A stretch of 58,932 nucleotides of DNA from Porticoccus sp. (GCA_041592135.1 JBFHQR010000001.1); one strand, 5' to 3'; numbered from the stretch's first letter, positions 1 to 10,622 are shown. Notes: generated by a model from the letters alone, not told the origin. Translations and numbers: made by a program.

Positions 1-54
1 CGCTTCAGGGCGATTGGGCGGGATGATTTTCTGGCCATGGGGGGCGAATTATGA
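1..54 (+). CDS. pxpB: C-terminal fragment of probable 5-oxoprolinase subunit B (KipI/allophanate hydrolase subunit 1 family), cut by window edge
   Basis: Frame 1 reads RFRAIGRDDFLAMGGEL*, resembling PxpB C-termini. Its stop overlaps the pxpC start (ATGA, 51-54). Confidence 0.6.
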   Translation, partial: RFRAIGRDDFLAMGGEL

Positions 55-992
55 GCACTTCCGGATTGGTGGTGGAGCGCCCCGGGGTATTGACCCTGAT
101 TCAGGATGCCGGGCGCAGCGGTTGCCAGCGCCTGGGGATCACCACCGGTGGTCCCGCCGATCCACTGGCCTTTGACTGGGCCAATCGCCTCTGTGGCAAT
201 GGTCCCGGCGCGGCCGCCCTGGAATTGTCGGTGGGGGGGCTGGCGCTGAGTGCCGAGGTGGCGACCCGTGTCGCCCTGTGCGGTGCTTATATGCCGTTCA
301 GTATCAACGGACGGATTCTCCCATCCTGGTGCAGTTACCAGGTTAATCCCGGTGACAGGATCGAAGTCGGTTTTGCCCGTGCGGGGGTGCGCGCCTACCT
401 GGCGGTGGCCGGCGGCCTGGACCTCCCGCCAACCCTGGGCAGTGTCGCGACGGTGGTGCGCGAGGGCCTGGGCGGATTGCACGGCACCAAACTGGCCGCA
501 GGTGATCATCTGCCCTGCGGTGATGCGGGGGAGGGCGATTGCCTCCGGGTGCCGGCCGGATACCGCCCGGTCTACACCAAGCGGGTACTGTTGCGGGTGG
601 TTACCGGCTACCAGTACGAGACTTTCGATGAGGAGCAACAACAGCGTTTTTTTGCCTCGGAGTACCGGGTGTCCGGGCAGTGCGATCGGATGGGCTATCG
701 CCTGGAGGGGCCCGCTGTGCATTGTGAACTGCCGGACATGTTATCCGAAGGCATCTGTCTCGGGGCCGTCCAGTTGCCGCCGGACGGCCAGCCCATTGTG
801 TTGATGTGCGACCGGCAGACCATTGGCGGCTACCCCAAACTGGGGTCGGTGATTTCGGTCGATCTGGCCCAGCTGGCACAGTTACCCCCCGGCGGCAAGG
901 TCAATTTTGCGCCGATCAGTGTGGAGCAGGCCCGCCAGGTCAGGATGATGGCGACCCGGCAGTTTCAGCAGCTGAGTCCGGAGGTGTGTTGA
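51..992 (+). CDS. pxpC: 5-oxoprolinase subunit C (KipA / carboxyltransferase-like family)
   Basis: Motifs IQDAGR, RAYLAVAGG, DRMGYRL and GAVQLPPDGQPIVLMCDRQTIGGYPKLG; 313 aa. Confidence 0.9.
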   Translation: MSTSGLVVERPGVLTLIQDAGRSGCQRLGITTGGPADPLAFDWANRLCGNGPGAAALELSVGGLALSAEVATRVALCGAYMPFSINGRILPSWCSYQVNPGDRIEVGFARAGVRAYLAVAGGLDLPPTLGSVATVVREGLGGLHGTKLAAGDHLPCGDAGEGDCLRVPAGYRPVYTKRVLLRVVTGYQYETFDEEQQQRFFASEYRVSGQCDRMGYRLEGPAVHCELPDMLSEGICLGAVQLPPDGQPIVLMCDRQTIGGYPKLGSVISVDLAQLAQLPPGGKVNFAPISVEQARQVRMMATRQFQQLSPEVC

Positions 993-1023
993 TGGCGAAG
1001 TACTTCAAAGGGACATACCGGTC

Positions 1024-1881
1024 ATGAACGTCGACGCCGACCTATTGCTCAGCCAGCGTATCGAACAGTTGCTGGTGGAGCGCAATCTGCGCGGCATGGC
1101 CGACCTGCGGGCGCACCTGAAGCCCGGTTACTGCCTGCGAGCGGCACAGTTGCTGCGGGATTGCCGCGGCCCGGCATTGATCGGCACCGGTTTCCCGGTG
1201 CTGGATACCTTTGAAACCGACGGGCCGGCCGGGGCCATTGCCCTCTACCGGGTTCTGGAGGCGCTGGGGTCAGAGCCGGTGCTGGTCTGTGGTGAACAGC
1301 TGGCCAATGCCCTGGCAGGAGACTATCGGGTAGAGGCCATGCCCCTGGGGCCAGTCCCCGGGCTGATAGACAAGGTCAAGGAAGTGGTCGGCCGCATCGA
1401 CCCCGAATTGCTGATCAGTATTGAACTGCCGGGGCGGGCGGCGGATGGCCGCTACTACAATATGAGGGGAGAGGACATCAGTGAACACTGCTTCTGTTTT
1501 GATGATTTTCTCAGTGTGTTGGCCTGTCCCTCTGTCGCCATCGGCGACGGCGGCAATGAAATTGGCATGGGCAACGTGGTTGGCGGCCTGGCCGGGCTCG
1601 ACATTATCCCGGCGGCCACCTGCTGTGATGAGCTGGTGATTGCCGATGTGTCCAATTGGGCGGCCCACGGCCTGGTGGCCATGCTCAGTTACTGGAGTGG
1701 CGAGGATTATCTGGCCCGTTGGGATAATCGCCTTGTGCTGGAGTATTTGGCGGTCAGGGGCAGTGTCGACGGTGTGACCCGTGAAAACACCCTGTCCGAG
1801 GATGGCCTGCCCTGCGAGAGTGGCAAGCTACTGGTTGAGGCCTTGCAGCAGCTGGTGGCAGAGGCCAGGTCGGCTCCTTAA
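1024..1881 (+). CDS. DUF4392 / D-glutamate cyclase-like C-terminal domain protein
   Basis: Motifs GTGFP, ETDGPAGA, IELPGRAADGRYYNMRG, AIGDGGNEIGMG, VSNW and DGVT; located next to pxpBC. Confidence 0.8.
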   Translation: MNVDADLLLSQRIEQLLVERNLRGMADLRAHLKPGYCLRAAQLLRDCRGPALIGTGFPVLDTFETDGPAGAIALYRVLEALGSEPVLVCGEQLANALAGDYRVEAMPLGPVPGLIDKVKEVVGRIDPELLISIELPGRAADGRYYNMRGEDISEHCFCFDDFLSVLACPSVAIGDGGNEIGMGNVVGGLAGLDIIPAATCCDELVIADVSNWAAHGLVAMLSYWSGEDYLARWDNRLVLEYLAVRGSVDGVTRENTLSEDGLPCESGKLLVEALQQLVAEARSAP

Positions 1882-1898
1882 GAAGACGGGATTTATCT

Positions 1899-1927
1899 TT
1901 GCCTGCCTGCGGGGCCACTGCTAAGAT
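1899..1927 (+). promoter_or_regulatory. Candidate sigma70 promoter for dat-alr
   Basis: TTGCCT (1899-1904), 17-nt spacer, TAAGAT (1922-1927) with an extended -10 TG, 54 nt upstream of the dat ATG. Confidence 0.4.
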
Positions 1928-1981
1928 CAGCCGCTTTTCCCGGGCCGGGCTGGTTGGCAAGCTTAGAGAGCTGAGTGAACG

Positions 1982-2836
1982 ATGAGCACAGTATTTTTGA
2001 ACGGTGATTACCTGCCCATGGAGGAAGCCCGCATTTCACCCATGGACCGGGGCTTCCTGTTCGGCGATGGCATTTACGAGGTGCTGCCTTCCTACCGGGG
2101 CAAAATGATCGGTTTTGACCTGCATCTGGCGCGCATGAACAATGGTCTGGCTGCCATTGGCATCGAACTGGGTTGGAGCAATGCCCGCTGGCGGGAGCTG
2201 TGCGACACCCTGATCGATGCCAATGGCGGCGGCAACCTCGCGCTGTACCTGCAGGTCAGTCGCGGCGCTGACACGCGCCGCTTTCACGCCTACCCGGAAA
2301 ATGTCACGCCGACGGTGTTCGCCTTTACCTTCGAAATCCCCGCGGAGCCGGTGGCCGACAAGTCCCGCGCAGCCTATCGGGTGGTGACGGATCGGGATCT
2401 GCGCTGGGAGCGCTGCCATATCAAATCCACGGCACTGCTGGGCAACGTGCTGCATTTCCAGCAGGGCTACCAGCAGGGGGCCGATGAAACCCTGTTGTTC
2501 AACGAGCGGGATGAACTCACCGAGGCCAGTGCCTGCAACGCCTATATCGTCAAGGATGGGGTGGTGATCACCCCGCCGCTGGACAACCACAAGCTGCCGG
2601 GTATCACCCGTCACATTTTGCTGGAGCTGCTGCGCAAGGACGGCCGCATTCCGGTGGAAGAGCGGGCGGTGACCAAAGCGGAAGTGTTCAATGCCGACGA
2701 GGTCTGGGTCACCAGTTCCTCCAAGGAGGTGGTGCCGGTGATCGAGGTGGATGGCAAGCCTGTCGGCAATGGCGAGATCGGCGATGTCTGGCTGCTGGCC
2801 CAGCAGATCTATTCTGCCGGTAAGTACGACTACTGA
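1982..2836 (+). CDS. dat: D-amino-acid aminotransferase (PLP fold type IV)
   Basis: DRGFLFGDGIYEV, YLQVSRG..RFH, DLRWERCHIKSTALLGNVL (catalytic Lys, D-AAT-like) and LPGITR. Confidence 0.8.
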   Translation: MSTVFLNGDYLPMEEARISPMDRGFLFGDGIYEVLPSYRGKMIGFDLHLARMNNGLAAIGIELGWSNARWRELCDTLIDANGGGNLALYLQVSRGADTRRFHAYPENVTPTVFAFTFEIPAEPVADKSRAAYRVVTDRDLRWERCHIKSTALLGNVLHFQQGYQQGADETLLFNERDELTEASACNAYIVKDGVVITPPLDNHKLPGITRHILLELLRKDGRIPVEERAVTKAEVFNADEVWVTSSSKEVVPVIEVDGKPVGNGEIGDVWLLAQQIYSAGKYDY

Positions 2837-2874
2837 CACGCCACACTGTTACCGGAGCAACGACGAAACCCTAT

Positions 2875-3969
2875 ATGTCCAGACCTGCGAAAGCCCTGAT
2901 TGATCTCGATGCCCTGCGCCACAACGTCGCGCTGGCCAACGGTCTGTCCCCCCATTCCGGCACCATGGCCATCGTCAAGGCCAATGCCTATGGCCACGGT
3001 GCGGTAGCGGTGGCGCGGGCGATTGAGGAGATGGTGCCGGCGTTCGGGGTGGCCTGTCTCGAGGAGGCGCTGGAGTTGCGGGAGGCGGGCATCGCCAAGC
3101 CGGTCTGCCTGATGGAAGGGGCTTTCTGTCCCGATGAAATTGCCGTCGCGGCAGAGCATGATTGCTGGCTGTCGGTGGTCAACCGGGAGCAGTTGCAGGC
3201 CCTTGTCGCCGCCAGACTGAGCCGACCGGTCAAGGCCTGGCTGTGGGTGGACAGCGGCATGCACCGCCTGGGCATCCGGCCCGAAGAGATTGTTGACAGC
3301 CATGCCGCGCTGAACGCCTCGAGCAATGTCGCGGATGGCATTGTGCTGGCGACCCATTTTGCCTGTGCCGATGAGCTGCACAACGACTTCACCCGACAGC
3401 AGCTGTCGCGTCTGCAAGCGGGCATGGCGGGGCTGCCAGAGCAGCCCAAAGTGCCCCTCAGTCTGGCCAATTCCGCCGCGCTGCTGGCCTGGCCCGAGTG
3501 CCGTGCCGACTGGAATCGCCCCGGCATCATGCTCTACGGCAGCTCACCCTTTCCCCAGTCCCACCCGGAGGCGGACAAGTTACAGCCGGTGATGACCCTG
3601 GTGTCTTCAGTTATAGCCCTCCGGGATGTGCCGGTCGGCGAGTCGGTGGGGTATGCGGCGCGCTGGCGTGCCGCCCGGCCCAGCCGCATCGCCACGGTGG
3701 CCATCGGTTACGGCGATGGCTATCCCGTGCACGCCCCGGATGGCACCCCTGTGCTGGTCAAGGGGCAGCGCTGTCCGCTGGTGGGCAGAGTGTCCATGGA
3801 TATGATCACCGTGGATGTGACGCAGCTGTCCGAGGTGACGCTGGGGGATGAAGTGGTGCTGTGGGGCAGGGGGTTGTCGGTCAACGAAGTGGCCGACAGC
3901 GCCGGAACCATCAGCTATGAACTGCTGACCCGTATGCCCCGGCGGGTGCCACGCATTTATTCCGCGTAG
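2875..3969 (+). CDS. alr: Alanine racemase
   Basis: AIVKANAYGHG PLP-lysine motif, DSGMHRLG, RPGIMLYG, GYGDGYP and GRVSMDM. Confidence 0.93.
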   Translation: MSRPAKALIDLDALRHNVALANGLSPHSGTMAIVKANAYGHGAVAVARAIEEMVPAFGVACLEEALELREAGIAKPVCLMEGAFCPDEIAVAAEHDCWLSVVNREQLQALVAARLSRPVKAWLWVDSGMHRLGIRPEEIVDSHAALNASSNVADGIVLATHFACADELHNDFTRQQLSRLQAGMAGLPEQPKVPLSLANSAALLAWPECRADWNRPGIMLYGSSPFPQSHPEADKLQPVMTLVSSVIALRDVPVGESVGYAARWRAARPSRIATVAIGYGDGYPVHAPDGTPVLVKGQRCPLVGRVSMDMITVDVTQLSEVTLGDEVVLWGRGLSVNEVADSAGTISYELLTRMPRRVPRIYSA

Positions 3970-3970
3970 C

Positions 3971-4018
3971 TTTTATTCCCAGTCACTTGTATTCCCAGTC
4001 ACTTTTATTCCGAGTCAC
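3971..4018. repeat. Tandem repeat, 3 x 16 bp
   Basis: ttttattcccagtcac / ttgtattcccagtcac / ttttattccgagtcac between the convergent alr and SSS transporter genes. The third copy contains the transporter stop codon. Confidence 0.85.
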
Positions 4019-5426
4019 TTTCCCGCCGTGGCTGGCGAAAACCCAGCTGGAGGCCCGCCGTCAGGATCAGCAAGCCTGTCAGAATCCCCGCCATACCCTC
4101 GTAGGCGGCATGGTGCCAACCCAGTTGACGCCACAGCAAAGCGCTGGCCAGGCCGCCCATAATTGCCGCCAGGCTCAGCCGGGGCGAGGGCCTGGCGCCC
4201 ACACAAAGCGCTAACAGCAGCGGCGCAAAGGCACTGGCCAGTCCCGACCAGGCCAGCACCACCAGGCTGAACACGCTTTGACTATTGCCCAGGGCCCACA
4301 GTAGTGCCGCCAGTGTCACCAGGACGGTGACAGCTTTCATGAAGCTGGTGTGCTCGATCCGGTGAGGTAGCAGGTCGTGGGTGATGGCCGCCGAGCAGCC
4401 CAGTACCAGCGAATCGGCGGTGGACATGGTGGCGGCGAAGATGCCCGCCAGTACCAGCCCCACCAACACTGGCGGGAACAGCGCCAGAGCCATGGTGGGC
4501 AGTGCCAGCTCGGCGTCGAAACTGCCGCTATCACTGAGGTAGACCCGGGACAGCATGCCGACGGCGGTGGCCATGGCGTAGAACAGCAGATACCAGAGGT
4601 AGTACCAGCAGCGCGCCCGGTTCATCTGCGCGCTGTCCTTCAGGCTCATGAAACGGATCATGATGTGGGGCTGGCCTATCACCGACAAGCCGGCGAACAT
4701 CCAGCTGGCGGCAAATAACAATCCACCGGCCAAACCTGGCAGGGCGAGGTCGGAGGGGAACCAGTTGAGGAACCCCTGTACGTCGGACATCGCCGCATAG
4801 GCCCCCGCACTGCCCCCCAGCGCGGTCGTGGCGGCGATGAGCAGCAGGCCCATGGCAACCAGCATCACCATGGACTGGGCGGCATCGGTCCAGATGGAGG
4901 CGCGAATGCCACCAGCATAGCAGTATAGGCAGACCAGGCTGGCGGATAGCGTGGCGCCGGCCCAGGCTGGCCACTCGAACAATACCTGTAAGGCCTTGCT
5001 GCCGGCCACCAGCTGGGCGCTGGCGTAGGCCAGCAGAAAGACCAGCGAAATGATGCCCATGCTGCGCTGCAAGCCGTTATGGCTGCCGCCATACCAGTTG
5101 CTGAGGACGCCCGCATAGCTGACTTCTGCCGTTTTCGGCGCCTGTTCCCGCAGGCGTCGGTGCACAAATTGCGAGGCCAGGAAATCGCCGGCAATCCAGC
5201 CCAGCATCAGCCAGACGGCGGAGAGACCGGCGGTGTAGGTGTAGCCGATCACACCGATAAACATGTAGCCACTGTTGTTGGTGGCCACGGCGGACAGCCC
5301 CACCAGCCAGGGCTGCACACTGTTGCTGGCGAGATAGTAATCCTGTTTGGTGCCGCGACTGCGCCTGGCGGACAGCAGCCCGACCAGGGTAAACATCAGC
5401 AGAAAGCCGATAAATGAGACGATCAA
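4005..5426 (-). CDS. Sodium:solute symporter (SSS family, PutP-like); possible compatible-solute transporter
   Basis: Highly hydrophobic 473 aa with DYYLA, SAVATNNSGYMFIG, GGIRASIWTD, GQPHIMIRFM and AATMSTADS. TTG start overlaps the upstream stop. Confidence 0.85.
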   Translation of the reverse strand: MIVSFIGFLLMFTLVGLLSARRSRGTKQDYYLASNSVQPWLVGLSAVATNNSGYMFIGVIGYTYTAGLSAVWLMLGWIAGDFLASQFVHRRLREQAPKTAEVSYAGVLSNWYGGSHNGLQRSMGIISLVFLLAYASAQLVAGSKALQVLFEWPAWAGATLSASLVCLYCYAGGIRASIWTDAAQSMVMLVAMGLLLIAATTALGGSAGAYAAMSDVQGFLNWFPSDLALPGLAGGLLFAASWMFAGLSVIGQPHIMIRFMSLKDSAQMNRARCWYYLWYLLFYAMATAVGMLSRVYLSDSGSFDAELALPTMALALFPPVLVGLVLAGIFAATMSTADSLVLGCSAAITHDLLPHRIEHTSFMKAVTVLVTLAALLWALGNSQSVFSLVVLAWSGLASAFAPLLLALCVGARPSPRLSLAAIMGGLASALLWRQLGWHHAAYEGMAGILTGLLILTAGLQLGFRQPRRESDSE

Positions 5427-6070: not shown

Positions 6071-7510
6071 CTACACCGCCAGGCAGATGGCGCGGCCGTG
6101 ATCGTGGACCTCAACCAGGCATTGGTGCAGGCTCTTGATGGCGTCTTCCCAGTGCGCCTCATTGATCACGAACTGCATGTCCACCTGGCGCATGGACTGG
6201 TGCATGGCCAGTACGCTGATGTCCTGTTCCGCCAGCGCCGCCACGGTTTTCGCCAGCAGGCCGGGAACCTGCATGTCGCTGCCGATGGCGGAGACAATGG
6301 CCACTTCCTGCTGGTTGATTTCCGCCTCGGGAAAGGTTTCTTCCAGTGCCCGGCAGATGCGCTTCACCGTCTTCAGGTTGGTGGAGAGGTAGTGGGTGAT
6401 GGTGTTGGCGTTGATGTCCTTCGAGATGACATGGGCGCGGAAACGCTCGATCACGTCCAGGATGGCGCTGTCGCAGCGGCTGTAGTTGCCGGCCATATCC
6501 TGGTTGAACAGCTCGATGGCGAACACGCCGCGGCAGCCGGCGATGATCTCCACGCAGGGGGTGTCGCTGACATAATCGCTGGTGATCAGGGTGCCACTGT
6601 GCTCCGGTTCAAAGGTGTTTTTCACCCGCAGCGGAATCTGCTTCTGGCGCAAGCCCTTGGCGGCCTTGGGGTGAATGGCCTCCATGCCGAGGTTGGCCAG
6701 CTGGTCGGCCACGTCGTAGTTGGTGCGGCCAATCGGCACCGCTTTTTCATCGCCCACCACCCGTGGGTCGGCGCTGCTGAGGTGGAACTCCTTGTGGATG
6801 ACGGCCTCGCGGGCGCCCGTCATCACCGCCAGGCGACTGAAGGTCATTTCACTGTAACCCCGGTCGAAGGTGGACATCAGCCCCTCACCGGTGTGGGCAT
6901 AGCCGGTGACAATGGGCAGTTCAGACGCCAGGTCCACCCCTTGAAATACCGTTTCAATGCGCTCGTCCAGAGACATGTGGCGGCTGCTCTGCCAGCCGGT
7001 CAGGTCCACAAAACGGGCGTTGATACCATCCCGCTGCAATAGCTGGGCGGTATTCCAGGTGCTGTGGGCCTCGCCGATACTGGCGAGCATCTCCCGCACC
7101 GTGTCCAGGTGGACCTCCAGGGCAAAGTGGCCGTGCTGGCAGAGTTTCTTGAGATCGGTGAGGCAGCGCTCCGCCTCTTCCAGCCGATTGCCAATGAACT
7201 GATTGGCAGCCGTCAGCAGTGGCTGTTCGGGGAACAACGCTTGGTTGATGGCAAACAACTGTTCTTTCAAGGCGGCCAGCAGCTCCTGCCAGCTGTCGTC
7301 TTTGACGCCATTGGCAAAGGACGCGAACACCCCGGGTTGCCCGGTTTTCTTGTGCTCGAGCAGTTGGTCGGTGATGCCACCATAGGCGGATACCACAAAG
7401 ATGCGTTGGTAGCGGTCCTTGCCTGCGGGCCTCAGGATGATATTGTCCCTGACGGCGGCGTAGTTGCTCATGGAGGTGCCGCCGATTTTTTCCACACTGT
7501 GAAAACCCAT
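6071..7510 (-). CDS. ask: Aspartate kinase, ectoine-associated (Ask_Ect)
   Basis: Start set at MGFHSVEKIGGTSM; VVSAYGGITD, FDRGYSE and C-terminal ACT domain; directly follows ectC. Confidence 0.92.
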   Translation of the reverse strand: MGFHSVEKIGGTSMSNYAAVRDNIILRPAGKDRYQRIFVVSAYGGITDQLLEHKKTGQPGVFASFANGVKDDSWQELLAALKEQLFAINQALFPEQPLLTAANQFIGNRLEEAERCLTDLKKLCQHGHFALEVHLDTVREMLASIGEAHSTWNTAQLLQRDGINARFVDLTGWQSSRHMSLDERIETVFQGVDLASELPIVTGYAHTGEGLMSTFDRGYSEMTFSRLAVMTGAREAVIHKEFHLSSADPRVVGDEKAVPIGRTNYDVADQLANLGMEAIHPKAAKGLRQKQIPLRVKNTFEPEHSGTLITSDYVSDTPCVEIIAGCRGVFAIELFNQDMAGNYSRCDSAILDVIERFRAHVISKDINANTITHYLSTNLKTVKRICRALEETFPEAEINQQEVAIVSAIGSDMQVPGLLAKTVAALAEQDISVLAMHQSMRQVDMQFVINEAHWEDAIKSLHQCLVEVHDHGRAICLAV

Positions 7511-7568
7511 TAAAAACTGTCTCCTTTTTTCGGGCTGGTATCGCTGGAATACGTTGCTTGTCCCGTGC

Positions 7569-7973
7569 TTACGCGCCGATGGTCTCCGCTTCCAGCTCAT
7601 AGGCGCCGTCGGCGTTGTGTACTTCCTTGCCGTTCAGGGGCGGGTTGAACACACAGGCCATTTTCATCTCTGAAAAGGCTCTCAGGGTGTGGCGGTCGTG
7701 TTTGTCGAGCACGTAGAGTGTGCCGGGGGTAATAGAGTGAACCTTGCCGTCATCGAGGGTTTCCACTTCCCCTTCACCGGATAGGCAATAGACGGATTCA
7801 AGATGGTTTTGGTAGTGCATATTGAAATCTGCACCGGCATAGATGGTGGTGATGTGAAAGGAAAAGCCCATGTTGTCGTCCTTCAGCAGCATCCGGGTAC
7901 TTTCCCAGTTGCCGTCGGGGGAGACGATGCGGCGGTTGCTTTGTTCGGCGTATTGCAGGTGTCTGACGATCAT
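7569..7973 (-). CDS. ectC: Ectoine synthase
   Basis: [36 protein letters not shown] and [13 protein letters not shown]. Confidence 0.96.
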
Positions 7974-8050
7974 GTTGGTCTCAATCTCAAATAAATTGGC
8001 CGATACCCGCCATCGCTGGTGTGGGTGTCGGTATGGAAAGCAGGGTAGGG

Positions 8051-9897
<1,847 letters not shown>

Positions 9898-10017
9898 GCT
9901 GATTAAGCTCCCGGTTAAATAATATATACAGCTCAAATTATTATTGTTTATGGAGTCAGCAAATATTCATTTTAGTTTCAATATGTGATTGATATATTGT
10001 TTCCATATCCGAATTTA

Positions 10018-10039
10018 AATGTTTAGAGATCGAAACATT
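10018..10039. promoter_or_regulatory. Inverted repeat, candidate EctR operator in the divergent ectA/ectR region
   Basis: AATGTTTAGA-GA-TCGAAACATT: 10-bp arms with one mismatch and a 2-bp spacer, in an AT-rich intergenic region. Confidence 0.55.
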
Positions 10040-10121
10040 GTACAGGATATCGGCAACCAGTCCAAATGAGCCCTGGCAACATTGGGCTATACTGGCCCGT
10101 CCGCAACACCGGGGGAACGTA

Positions 10122-10622
10122 TTGGAATCCATCGAACAGGTACTGATTGCCCTGCGCCGGGTGATCAGGGCGACCGATTTGTATTCAAAGCATCTGGCAA
10201 AGACCAGTGGCTTGACGGCGCCGCAGATTCTGCTGTTGCAGGCCATTCGCGACCGCGGCCAGGTGACCATCGGCGAGCTGGCGGGGGATATCAGTCTCAG
10301 TCAGGCGACGGTGACCACCATTATCGATCGGCTGGAAAAGCGGGGACTGGTTTACCGGGAGCGCTCCACCGCCGATAAGCGCAAGGTGCACGCGCATTTG
10401 ACCGAGCGGGCCGTGGAGGTGTTGCGGCATGCGCCGAAGCCGCTGCAGGAGCACTTTGCCCGGCAGTTTGAAGCCTTGCAGGAGTGGGAGCAGAGCATGA
10501 TTTTATCCTCTCTGCAGCGGGTTGCCGGGATGATGGATGCGCAGCACATTGACGCGTCGCCGATTCTCGATATCGGCATGCTGGATCGCTCCTCCAACCC
10601 GGTTGAAAAACCTGAGGGATAG
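10122..10622 (+). CDS. ectR: MarR-family transcriptional regulator of the ectoine operon (EctR-like)
   Basis: LIALRRVIRATDLYSKHL..SGLTAPQ, LSQATVTTIIDRLEKRGLV and DKRKV; divergent from ectA. Probable TTG start with GGGGGA RBS. Confidence 0.85.
   Translation: MESIEQVLIALRRVIRATDLYSKHLAKTSGLTAPQILLLQAIRDRGQVTIGELAGDISLSQATVTTIIDRLEKRGLVYRERSTADKRKVHAHLTERAVEVLRHAPKPLQEHFARQFEALQEWEQSMILSSLQRVAGMMDAQHIDASPILDIGMLDRSSNPVEKPEG

Follow-up and report, generated by a model that had tools for sequence, protein, structure and literature searches.

The window analysed here, a stretch of 58,932 nucleotides (nt) from Porticoccus sp. (GCA_041592135.1 JBFHQR010000001.1), coincides at its first base with the start of contig C1 in a 2.4 Mb, 92% complete genome (G000). 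It opens with five co-oriented open reading frames at positions 1–3969: the tail of pxpB, pxpC, a stand-alone DUF4392 gene, dat and alr. A preliminary reading made without database searches (the sequence-only reading) had described five such genes with a 4-nt overlap followed by gaps of 31, 100 and 38 nt; this layout matched the open reading frame positions exactly, the pxpB/pxpC overlap being ATGA, and the gene names it had given were borne out by matches to PF02626, PF14336, PF01063 and PF01168/PF00842. The pxpB 3' end (5-oxoprolinase subunit B; 1..54, plus strand, as are all features of the cluster) was assigned by its frame-1 translation, which matches the C-termini of PxpB in relatives. 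The pxpC gene (51..992) encodes the 313-aa 5-oxoprolinase subunit C, with scores of 301 bits to PF02626, 271 to TIGR00724 (above the cut-off of 230) and 239.7 to NF045499 (cut-off 500). The DUF4392 gene (1024..1881) encodes a 285-aa protein resembling the C-terminal domain of D-glutamate cyclase (PF14336, 211 bits vs 27.9), and its nearest named homologues are from Porticoccus at 59–64% identity. The product of dat (1982..2836) is a 284-aa D-amino-acid aminotransferase of pyridoxal phosphate fold type IV (PF01063), whose nine best PDB matches are all D-amino-acid or D-alanine aminotransferases; its scores to the curated models TIGR01121 (229.6, cut-off 277.45) and NF005209 (246, cut-off 320) fall under both cut-offs, and these are still its top two models. 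Dat residues Y32, H102 and K148 are invariant in 113 sequences and R100 is kept in 111 of the 113; we take them to be the active-site tyrosine, the Arg-x-His pair and the pyridoxal phosphate lysine. Finally, alr (2875..3969) encodes a 364-aa alanine racemase (TIGR00492, 364 bits against a cut-off of 168; PF01168 and PF00842), the sole alanine racemase match in G000.

A promoter-like motif of putative function lies before dat (1899..1927), where a sigma70-like promoter had been suggested from the sequence. It consists of a -35 hexamer, TTGCCT, at 1899, a 17-nt spacer and a TG-extended -10, TAAGAT, ending at 1927. The motif scored below the threshold of a consensus promoter scan, and an extended -10 was read by eye before dat in 16 of 18 same-genus loci, with a variable spacer.

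The rest of the unit was located at the end of contig C12 of G000, where tblastn with a relative's proteins placed a DUF1445 gene (PF07286, 224 bits), pxpA and residues 1–185 of pxpB; the C12 and C1 parts of pxpB are about 23 codons short of joining. In G000, pxpA and pxpB were identified by this tblastn search and pxpC by PF02626. The full unit is DUF1445-pxpA-pxpB-pxpC-DUF4392-dat-alr, which holds both halves of the animal D-glutamate cyclase as separate genes. Of the genes that the sequence-only reading had proposed to look for upstream, pxpA and DUF1445 were found and a transporter was not: no uptake gene lies between the seven genes, and no transporter recurred among the co-oriented upstream neighbours scanned (26 of 35; the downstream side was not scanned systematically). 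Its notion of a Pxp paralogue was not upheld, as only one pxpABC set was found in G000, the other PxpC-like match being a 1238-aa urea-carboxylase-type protein. Two genes of the hydantoinase/oxoprolinase-A family also occur elsewhere in the genome (C56:11548-12390 and C45:13437-14270; L224, L225), one of them beside a 760-aa partner.

Of 61 relatives (counting G000), 28 carry DUF4392, and 20 of these loci were fetched (18 from the same genus, 2 from other families). The seven genes stood in identical order in all 20; one locus has a LysR gene before dat and one has both DUF genes broken. The search was extended to an evenly drawn sample of 401 genomes of the order and to 401 genomes of the class, in which DUF4392 exceeded its cut-off in 53 and 3 genomes, respectively, and outside the order the cluster is patchy. 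In 49 further loci from these samples (47 order, 2 class), DUF1445 was present in 43, pxpA in 46, pxpB in 42, pxpC in 42, dat in 46 and alr in 37; all seven genes occurred together in 31 loci, and the six without alr in 39. A GTDB set was made from the best 80 of 571 loci, some of its genomes being shared with the 49-locus set; with short flanks and two fusion loci dropped, dat was present in 61 of 69 loci, alr in 31 of 69, pxpA in 61 of 61, pxpB and pxpC each in 59 of 61 and DUF1445 in 57 of 61. The claim that dat and alr keep company with pxp and DUF4392 across genera holds for dat, the constant partner; alr is variable, and in two loci (L139, L150) it opens the cluster rather than closing it. 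Upstream neighbours are unrelated between loci (thyA, fumarase, transaldolase, proS, groEL and others), and because gene order is kept while the flanking genes differ between families, the adjacency is far beyond chance. A distant metagenome contig (L238) carries the same set reordered, as dat-pxpA-pxpB-pxpC-DUF1445-DUF4392; the set was not seen in the other six of seven distant metagenome loci, several of which are short. Chance adjacency of the cluster genes was ruled out by their retention in varied surroundings and by the reordered set in L238.

Other arrangements were also recorded. DUF4392 and dat overlap or abut in other families, compared with the promoter-like motif before dat in this genus. 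A replicon of Pseudoalteromonas sp. CF6-2 reads GH3-DUF1445-pxpA-DUF4392-dat, with a Dat 59% identical to that of G000; in Pseudoalteromonas the gene directly 5' of DUF1445 resembles GH3 beta-N-acetylhexosaminidases, under the cut-off (L230:3611-5419, L189), a possible link to peptidoglycan recycling. In L059, from the murI-lacking genome G049, pxpABC stands beside dat-alr with neither DUF gene, and L065, from the murI-bearing genome G036, reads regulator-pxpABC-alr with no dat.

The DUF4392 protein keeps all six metal ligands given for TON_0340 (PMC5132392), the stand-alone DUF4392 protein of Thermococcus onnurineus, by alignment to 4FC5/5GKX (E64, D66, E134, D175, E179, D260 = E59, D61, E115, D157, E161, D246), and all six are invariant in 40 homologues. 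Among 31 long homologues, DUF4392 is fused to PxpC in 19 and to a MurD-like part, comprising the N-terminal and middle domains and no C-terminal domain, in 7; these fusions tie DUF4392 to users of D-Glu. A racemase-DUF4392 fusion, suggested by a Thermovirga annotation in the accessible part of the paper naming the animal enzyme (PMC5339696), was not found among the 31 long matches, which is weak evidence. PxpC-DUF4392 fusions were also noted in Porticoccaceae (L091, L193, L198; P0121-P0139), with clusters of up to 592 member sequences. The MurD-like fusions (P0140, P0142-P0147, P0188, P0209, P0212, P0216, P0218) have an altered P-loop and are sometimes followed by DUF1445; as a speculation, they could sense the MurD substrate. 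A search of the Atlas with DUF4392 returned PF14336 clusters only, and PF14336 was found in none of 14 control genomes, including B. subtilis.

DUF1445 was found in 90 of the 401 order genomes, including all 53 with DUF4392, and 36 of the 37 genomes with DUF1445 only carry murI; such nesting is as expected if a DUF1445-oxoprolinase module had gained DUF4392 as its point of entry for D-Glu. The two domains are fused, in both orders, in 82 of 121 long proteins examined, and among the best 120 of 573 DUF1445 is fused to hydantoinase-type ATP oxoprolinase (14) and to PxpB/C (4); it is therefore tied, through two unrelated ATP oxoprolinases, to ATP-dependent lactam opening. The fusions of DUF4392 to DUF1445, PxpC and the MurD-like part agree with the D-glutamate/5-oxoproline theme that the sequence-only reading had seen in the locus. 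DUF1445 is also fused to PF01035 (methylguanine methyltransferase-type), PF00291 (threonine-dehydratase-type) and PF03480 (TRAP binding-protein) domains (P0250, P0252, P0255, P0256, P0201, P0258). Two cysteines, C116 and C224, are invariant in 114 of 114 DUF1445 domains, birds included, and in the DUF1445 model (predicted local distance difference test score 91) they precede helices 118–126 and 227–235. The modelled fold matches 2PIF/3DB9, and the nearest unrelated fold is the regulatory domain of NrpR (3NEK; Z 10.0, root-mean-square deviation 4.1, 167 aligned), which presumably binds 2-oxoglutarate. The listed matches of the model comprised only DUF1445 structures and NrpR, the MurI/DapF-type racemase fold being absent from them; no internal repeat was found by hhalign (probability 0.2), and an Atlas search gave no usable match outside the family itself.

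By the established chemistry of their families, Alr would interconvert L-Ala and D-Ala, and Dat would interconvert D-Ala plus 2-oxoglutarate with pyruvate plus D-Glu. In the order sample, murI exceeded its cut-off in 16 of the 53 DUF4392 genomes vs 286 of the 348 others, a comparison in which kin are not independent, and in the GTDB set it did so in 8 of 50 further cluster genomes (50 of the 80 loci; genome completeness not given). Since most cluster-bearing genomes lack murI, Dat would be needed in most of them for making D-Glu. The placement of alr follows the same line: it lies inside the cluster in 33 of 36 murI-lacking vs 4 of 11 murI-bearing genomes, two loci at contig ends having been excluded, and, in the second set, in 19 of 42 vs 1 of 8. 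All nine same-genus genomes without DUF4392 lack murI; eight of them, streamlined congeners, retain dat-alr, and their fetched loci hold neither pxp nor DUF genes, the ninth genome being 63% complete. In a quick tree the Dats of the congeners nest within the cluster-type Dats and apart from dacA-linked Dats (98 by the Shimodaira-Hasegawa-like approximate likelihood ratio test, long branches); these genes suggest that the congeners with dat-alr alone lost the upstream pxp/DUF block. Where the cluster is dat-less (ten genomes), a Dat-like gene is found at another site in nine genomes, and the remaining one has murI; no genome with the cluster and neither Dat nor MurI was found among these ten, in four of which murI was not searched. 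Nine murI-lacking genomes (under cut-off) of other families gave a usable match, and a Dat-like gene was present in the cases inspected (G037, G041, G046, G048, G049, G050, G055). No alanine dehydrogenase over cut-off was found in the 92% complete G000. The likely role of Dat and Alr is to provide the wall with D-alanine and D-glutamate. The sequence-only reading had instead made dat-alr the tail of a dedicated utilisation route, a proposal not supported in view of the sole alr of G000, of dat-alr standing alone in eight murI-less congeners and of the absence of murI from most cluster genomes.

That proposal ran as a one-way chain from 5-oxo-D-proline to D-Glu, then to 2-oxoglutarate plus D-Ala, and on to L-Ala. 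It is partly supported: the gene identities and the synteny of dat hold, and the housekeeping signs of dat-alr, the missing transporter and the energetics speak against it. For the L-form, the equilibrium constant [Glu]/[5-oxoproline] is given as about 0.035 in the available text of PMC13274462, the lactam being favoured; lactam opening without ATP was computed from it to be uphill by +8.3 kJ/mol. Because uncoupled opening is uphill, the first step of that chain is the weak one unless it is strongly pulled. A cyclase and an ATP oxoprolinase acting on the same hand would form a futile, ATP-wasting cycle; acting on opposite hands they would be unconnected unless the lactam were inverted, and DUF1445 is the candidate inverter.

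It is quite probable that the upstream block acts, by one route or another, on D-Glu and 5-oxoproline. The reading we prefer, which is tentative, is that Dat and Alr would supply D-amino acids to the wall, and that DUF4392, DUF1445 and PxpABC would drain surplus D-Glu to L-Glu via 5-oxoproline. Alr would make D-Ala and Dat D-Glu, both expressed in this genus from the internal promoter; the two-metal site of DUF4392 would cyclise D-Glu to 5-oxo-D-proline, a downhill step; DUF1445 would use C116 and C224 to invert 5-oxo-D-proline to 5-oxo-L-proline, the weakest step of the scheme; and PxpABC would open 5-oxo-L-proline to L-Glu using ATP. The net path D-Glu → 5-oxo-D-Pro → 5-oxo-L-Pro → L-Glu would be downhill or neutral at each step at the cost of one ATP. 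It would act as a one-way, indirect glutamate racemase, would also repair spontaneously formed lactam of either hand, and in cells without MurI would pass nitrogen taken from D-Ala by Dat to L-Glu. A bolder and somewhat unlikely form of this reading holds that the cluster is an ATP-driven one-way glutamate racemase made of the DUF4392 cyclase, a two-cysteine 5-oxoproline racemase (DUF1445/YcsI) on an NrpR-like fold, which would be a new racemase fold, and PxpABC; that with Dat and Alr it would replace MurI in many marine Gammaproteobacteria and turn D-Ala and D-Glu of seawater peptidoglycan into L-Glu; and that animal DGLUCY would be a fusion of its first two steps.

Several observations weigh against the draining of D-Glu through an inverted lactam. 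The purified two-domain mouse enzyme is reported, in the consulted portion of PMC5339696, to make 5-oxo-D-proline in an analysis that separated the D and L standards, no L-Glu being formed, and humans are described there as excreting the D-lactam. An active DUF1445 lactam racemase should scramble the product, and bird DGLUCY keeps both cysteines, so the D-only product counts against inversion. G000 itself has murI (contig C100) and does not need the route; within the genus the trend is reversed, with murI in 14 of 26 DUF4392 genomes vs 0 of 9 without DUF4392; and 62 of 99 murI-lacking order genomes are without DUF4392, so cells lacking MurI can do without the module. A LysR orthologue accompanies 31 of 149 loci (the locus sets overlap), none of them in the same genus, and hints at induction rather than housekeeping. 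The gene block also comes apart: in G640, LysR, DUF1445, DUF4392 and dat are together and pxpABC lies at another site; of five g369 loci, four read pxpA-DUF4392-dat-alr, their DUF1445 and, where looked for, pxpBC being located away from the group. TON_0340, the only assayed prokaryotic DUF4392 protein, is described as a weak Mn phosphatase in the sections of PMC5132392 that were available, which also find no DUF1445 in archaea. Nor is the DUF4392 family single-function, to judge from the sugar and amino-acid ATP-binding cassette (ABC) settings of its rhizobial members: a distant subfamily (~30% identity), present in two copies in one case, neighbours sugar oxidoreductase or amino-acid ABC transporter genes on rhizobial replicons (L231, L232).

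Some of these points are better accommodated by a salvage or repair role that keeps the direction of the sequence-only reading: DUF1445 and DUF4392 would together be a D-glutamate cyclase able to run both ways, and the D-Glu formed by opening 5-oxo-D-proline would be drawn off by MurD and by Dat, the latter yielding 2-oxoglutarate plus D-Ala and then L-Ala. PxpABC would take the L-lactam in parallel, with no inversion. Such a cyclase is a somewhat unlikely explanation. It agrees with the D-only product of the mouse enzyme in the accessible text (PMC5339696), with the G640 locus, where the pxp genes are missing from the group, with the overlap or close abutment of DUF4392 and dat in many families, with the MurD-like fusion, and with LysR accompanying dat even where dat has moved (L229). 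Its opening step, however, has to climb about 8 kJ/mol, and the D-Glu that murI-lacking cells need would be depleted by a free cyclase. This reading leaves unexplained the DUF4392-PxpC fusions, the 37 DUF1445-only genomes and the fusion of DUF1445 to each of the two types of ATP oxoprolinase; no transporter recurs among the 26 co-oriented upstream neighbours scanned, and alr is absent from 38 of 69 loci.

Alternatively, DUF4392 could be a Mn-dependent phosphatase or another accessory of 5-oxoprolinase, for instance one removing gamma-glutamyl phosphate, with dat-alr as wall-supply genes that merely share the locus. The Mn-dependent activity of TON_0340 is weak, at a kcat/KM of 190 per M per s on AMP according to the extract available (PMC5132392). 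The PxpC-DUF4392 fusions, the promoter-like motif before dat, the survival of dat-alr alone and the order pxpABC-x-dat-alr without either DUF gene in G049 fit this idea. We consider it quite improbable, however, since DUF4392 remains beside dat where pxpBC lie elsewhere (g369, G640, Pseudoalteromonas), the same set is reassembled in another order in a distant lineage (L238), the quick tree groups the cluster Dats in a single branch separate from those linked to dacA, and the animal fusion acts on D-Glu. About equally improbable is a D-specific PxpABC (or one made so by DUF1445) that feeds the wall with D-Glu from 5-oxo-D-proline and stands in for MurI alongside Dat, the starting material possibly being L-Glu converted through both lactams. 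The scarcity of murI in cluster genomes, the MurD-like fusions and the capacity of ATP to overcome the uphill step speak for it. Against it, no genome was found to need it (of the ten genomes with a dat-less cluster, nine have a Dat-like gene at another site and one has murI), the only pxpABC found in G000 is probably used for the usual L-lactam, two hydantoinase-type genes notwithstanding, and with a D-cyclase it would run a futile cycle.

Downstream of the cluster, a PutP-like sodium:solute symporter gene (under cut-off; 4005–5426, minus strand) is convergent on alr; it occurs in about half of the same-genus loci and lies outside the conserved cluster. A 16-nt tandem repeat of 3.2 copies (3970–4021) fills the gap between the alr and symporter stops. 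Beyond it, 6071–10622 holds what we take, from the translations, to be the ectoine genes ask, ectC, ectB and ectA (minus strand) with a divergent MarR-type regulator, an ordinary set.

The seven-gene cluster is real and conserved; it joins known and orphan enzymes in a way that appears not to have been described, and its direction and step assignment are unproven. No description of the seven-gene operon was found in the Creative-Commons PMC and bioRxiv literature, in which two papers name DUF4392; subscription journals and supplements may mention the neighbourhood. To our knowledge, structures of DUF1445 (YcsI) and prokaryotic DUF4392 proteins have been solved and neither family has an agreed function. 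If the route is true, it would give a function to two long-unexplained protein families, and a naturally split cyclase beside enzymes of known chemistry makes each domain assayable alone. Among marine Gammaproteobacteria the cluster is common (DUF4392 in 53 of the 401 order genomes), mostly where glutamate racemase is missing, and it bears on the D-glutamate balance of these cells and on D-amino acid turnover in seawater.

Among known systems, the DgcN-DgcA-DgcH pathway of marine Proteobacteria (Yu et al., 2023) reportedly converts D-Glu to L-Glu by an energy-consuming, indirect route via an N-acylated intermediate. The enzymes of the present cluster are unrelated to it, and in the present scheme the part of the N-acyl intermediate would fall to the lactam; no DUF1611/DgcN match was found in the 92% complete G000. 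Catabolism of D-alanine through a D-Ala aminotransferase in Pseudoalteromonas sp. CF6-2 is, by its title, the subject of a 2022 study by Yu et al. If the study concerns the cluster dat, flux in vivo would run from D-Ala to D-Glu, opposite to the chain of the sequence-only reading and in line with a need for D-Glu disposal. With MurI and DapF, the two-cysteine cofactor-free racemases, DUF1445 shares two invariant cysteines that are predicted to stand at helix starts. The PxpABC operons of B. subtilis (pxpA-ycsG-ycsI-pxpB-pxpC) and C. glutamicum (pxpTABC) keep pxpA, pxpB and pxpC together as here, so far as the available portions describe them (PMC13274462, PMC10448178), and a control search found DUF1445 in B. 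subtilis as well; in contrast to both, the present cluster adds DUF4392, dat and alr and has no transporter. The Dat/Alr route to peptidoglycan D-glutamate, an alternative to MurI, employs the same two enzymes in the passages available (PMC5885031, PMC12363236), but here they are tied to an oxoproline module and Dat belongs to a branch distinct from the dacA-linked Dats. By a search for terms in the accessible text, a survey of D-amino-acid genes in the Mariana Trench mentions neither the cyclase nor the oxoprolinase (PMC12363236). TON_0340 (4FC5, 5GKX) is likewise a stand-alone DUF4392 protein with the six acidic ligands kept, but is described in the available part of its paper as a probable Mn phosphatase, D-Glu not being among the substrates given there (PMC5132392). 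A further likeness is to the animal D-glutamate cyclase (DGLUCY/C14orf159/9030617O03Rik), with which the cluster has DUF1445 (PF07286) and DUF4392 (PF14336) in common; its naming paper, in the part available, does not assign the catalytic domain (PMC5339696), and six split homologues of the human protein are tabulated, in the accessible text with no functional analysis, by a gut-microbiome survey (PMC12547972). Bird DGLUCY shares the metal-ligand motifs and both DUF1445 cysteines with the bacterial proteins. DGLUCY is one polypeptide, and fused bacterial forms exist, whereas here the two domains, of putative activity, are encoded by separate, non-adjacent genes that flank pxpABC and are followed by dat-alr.

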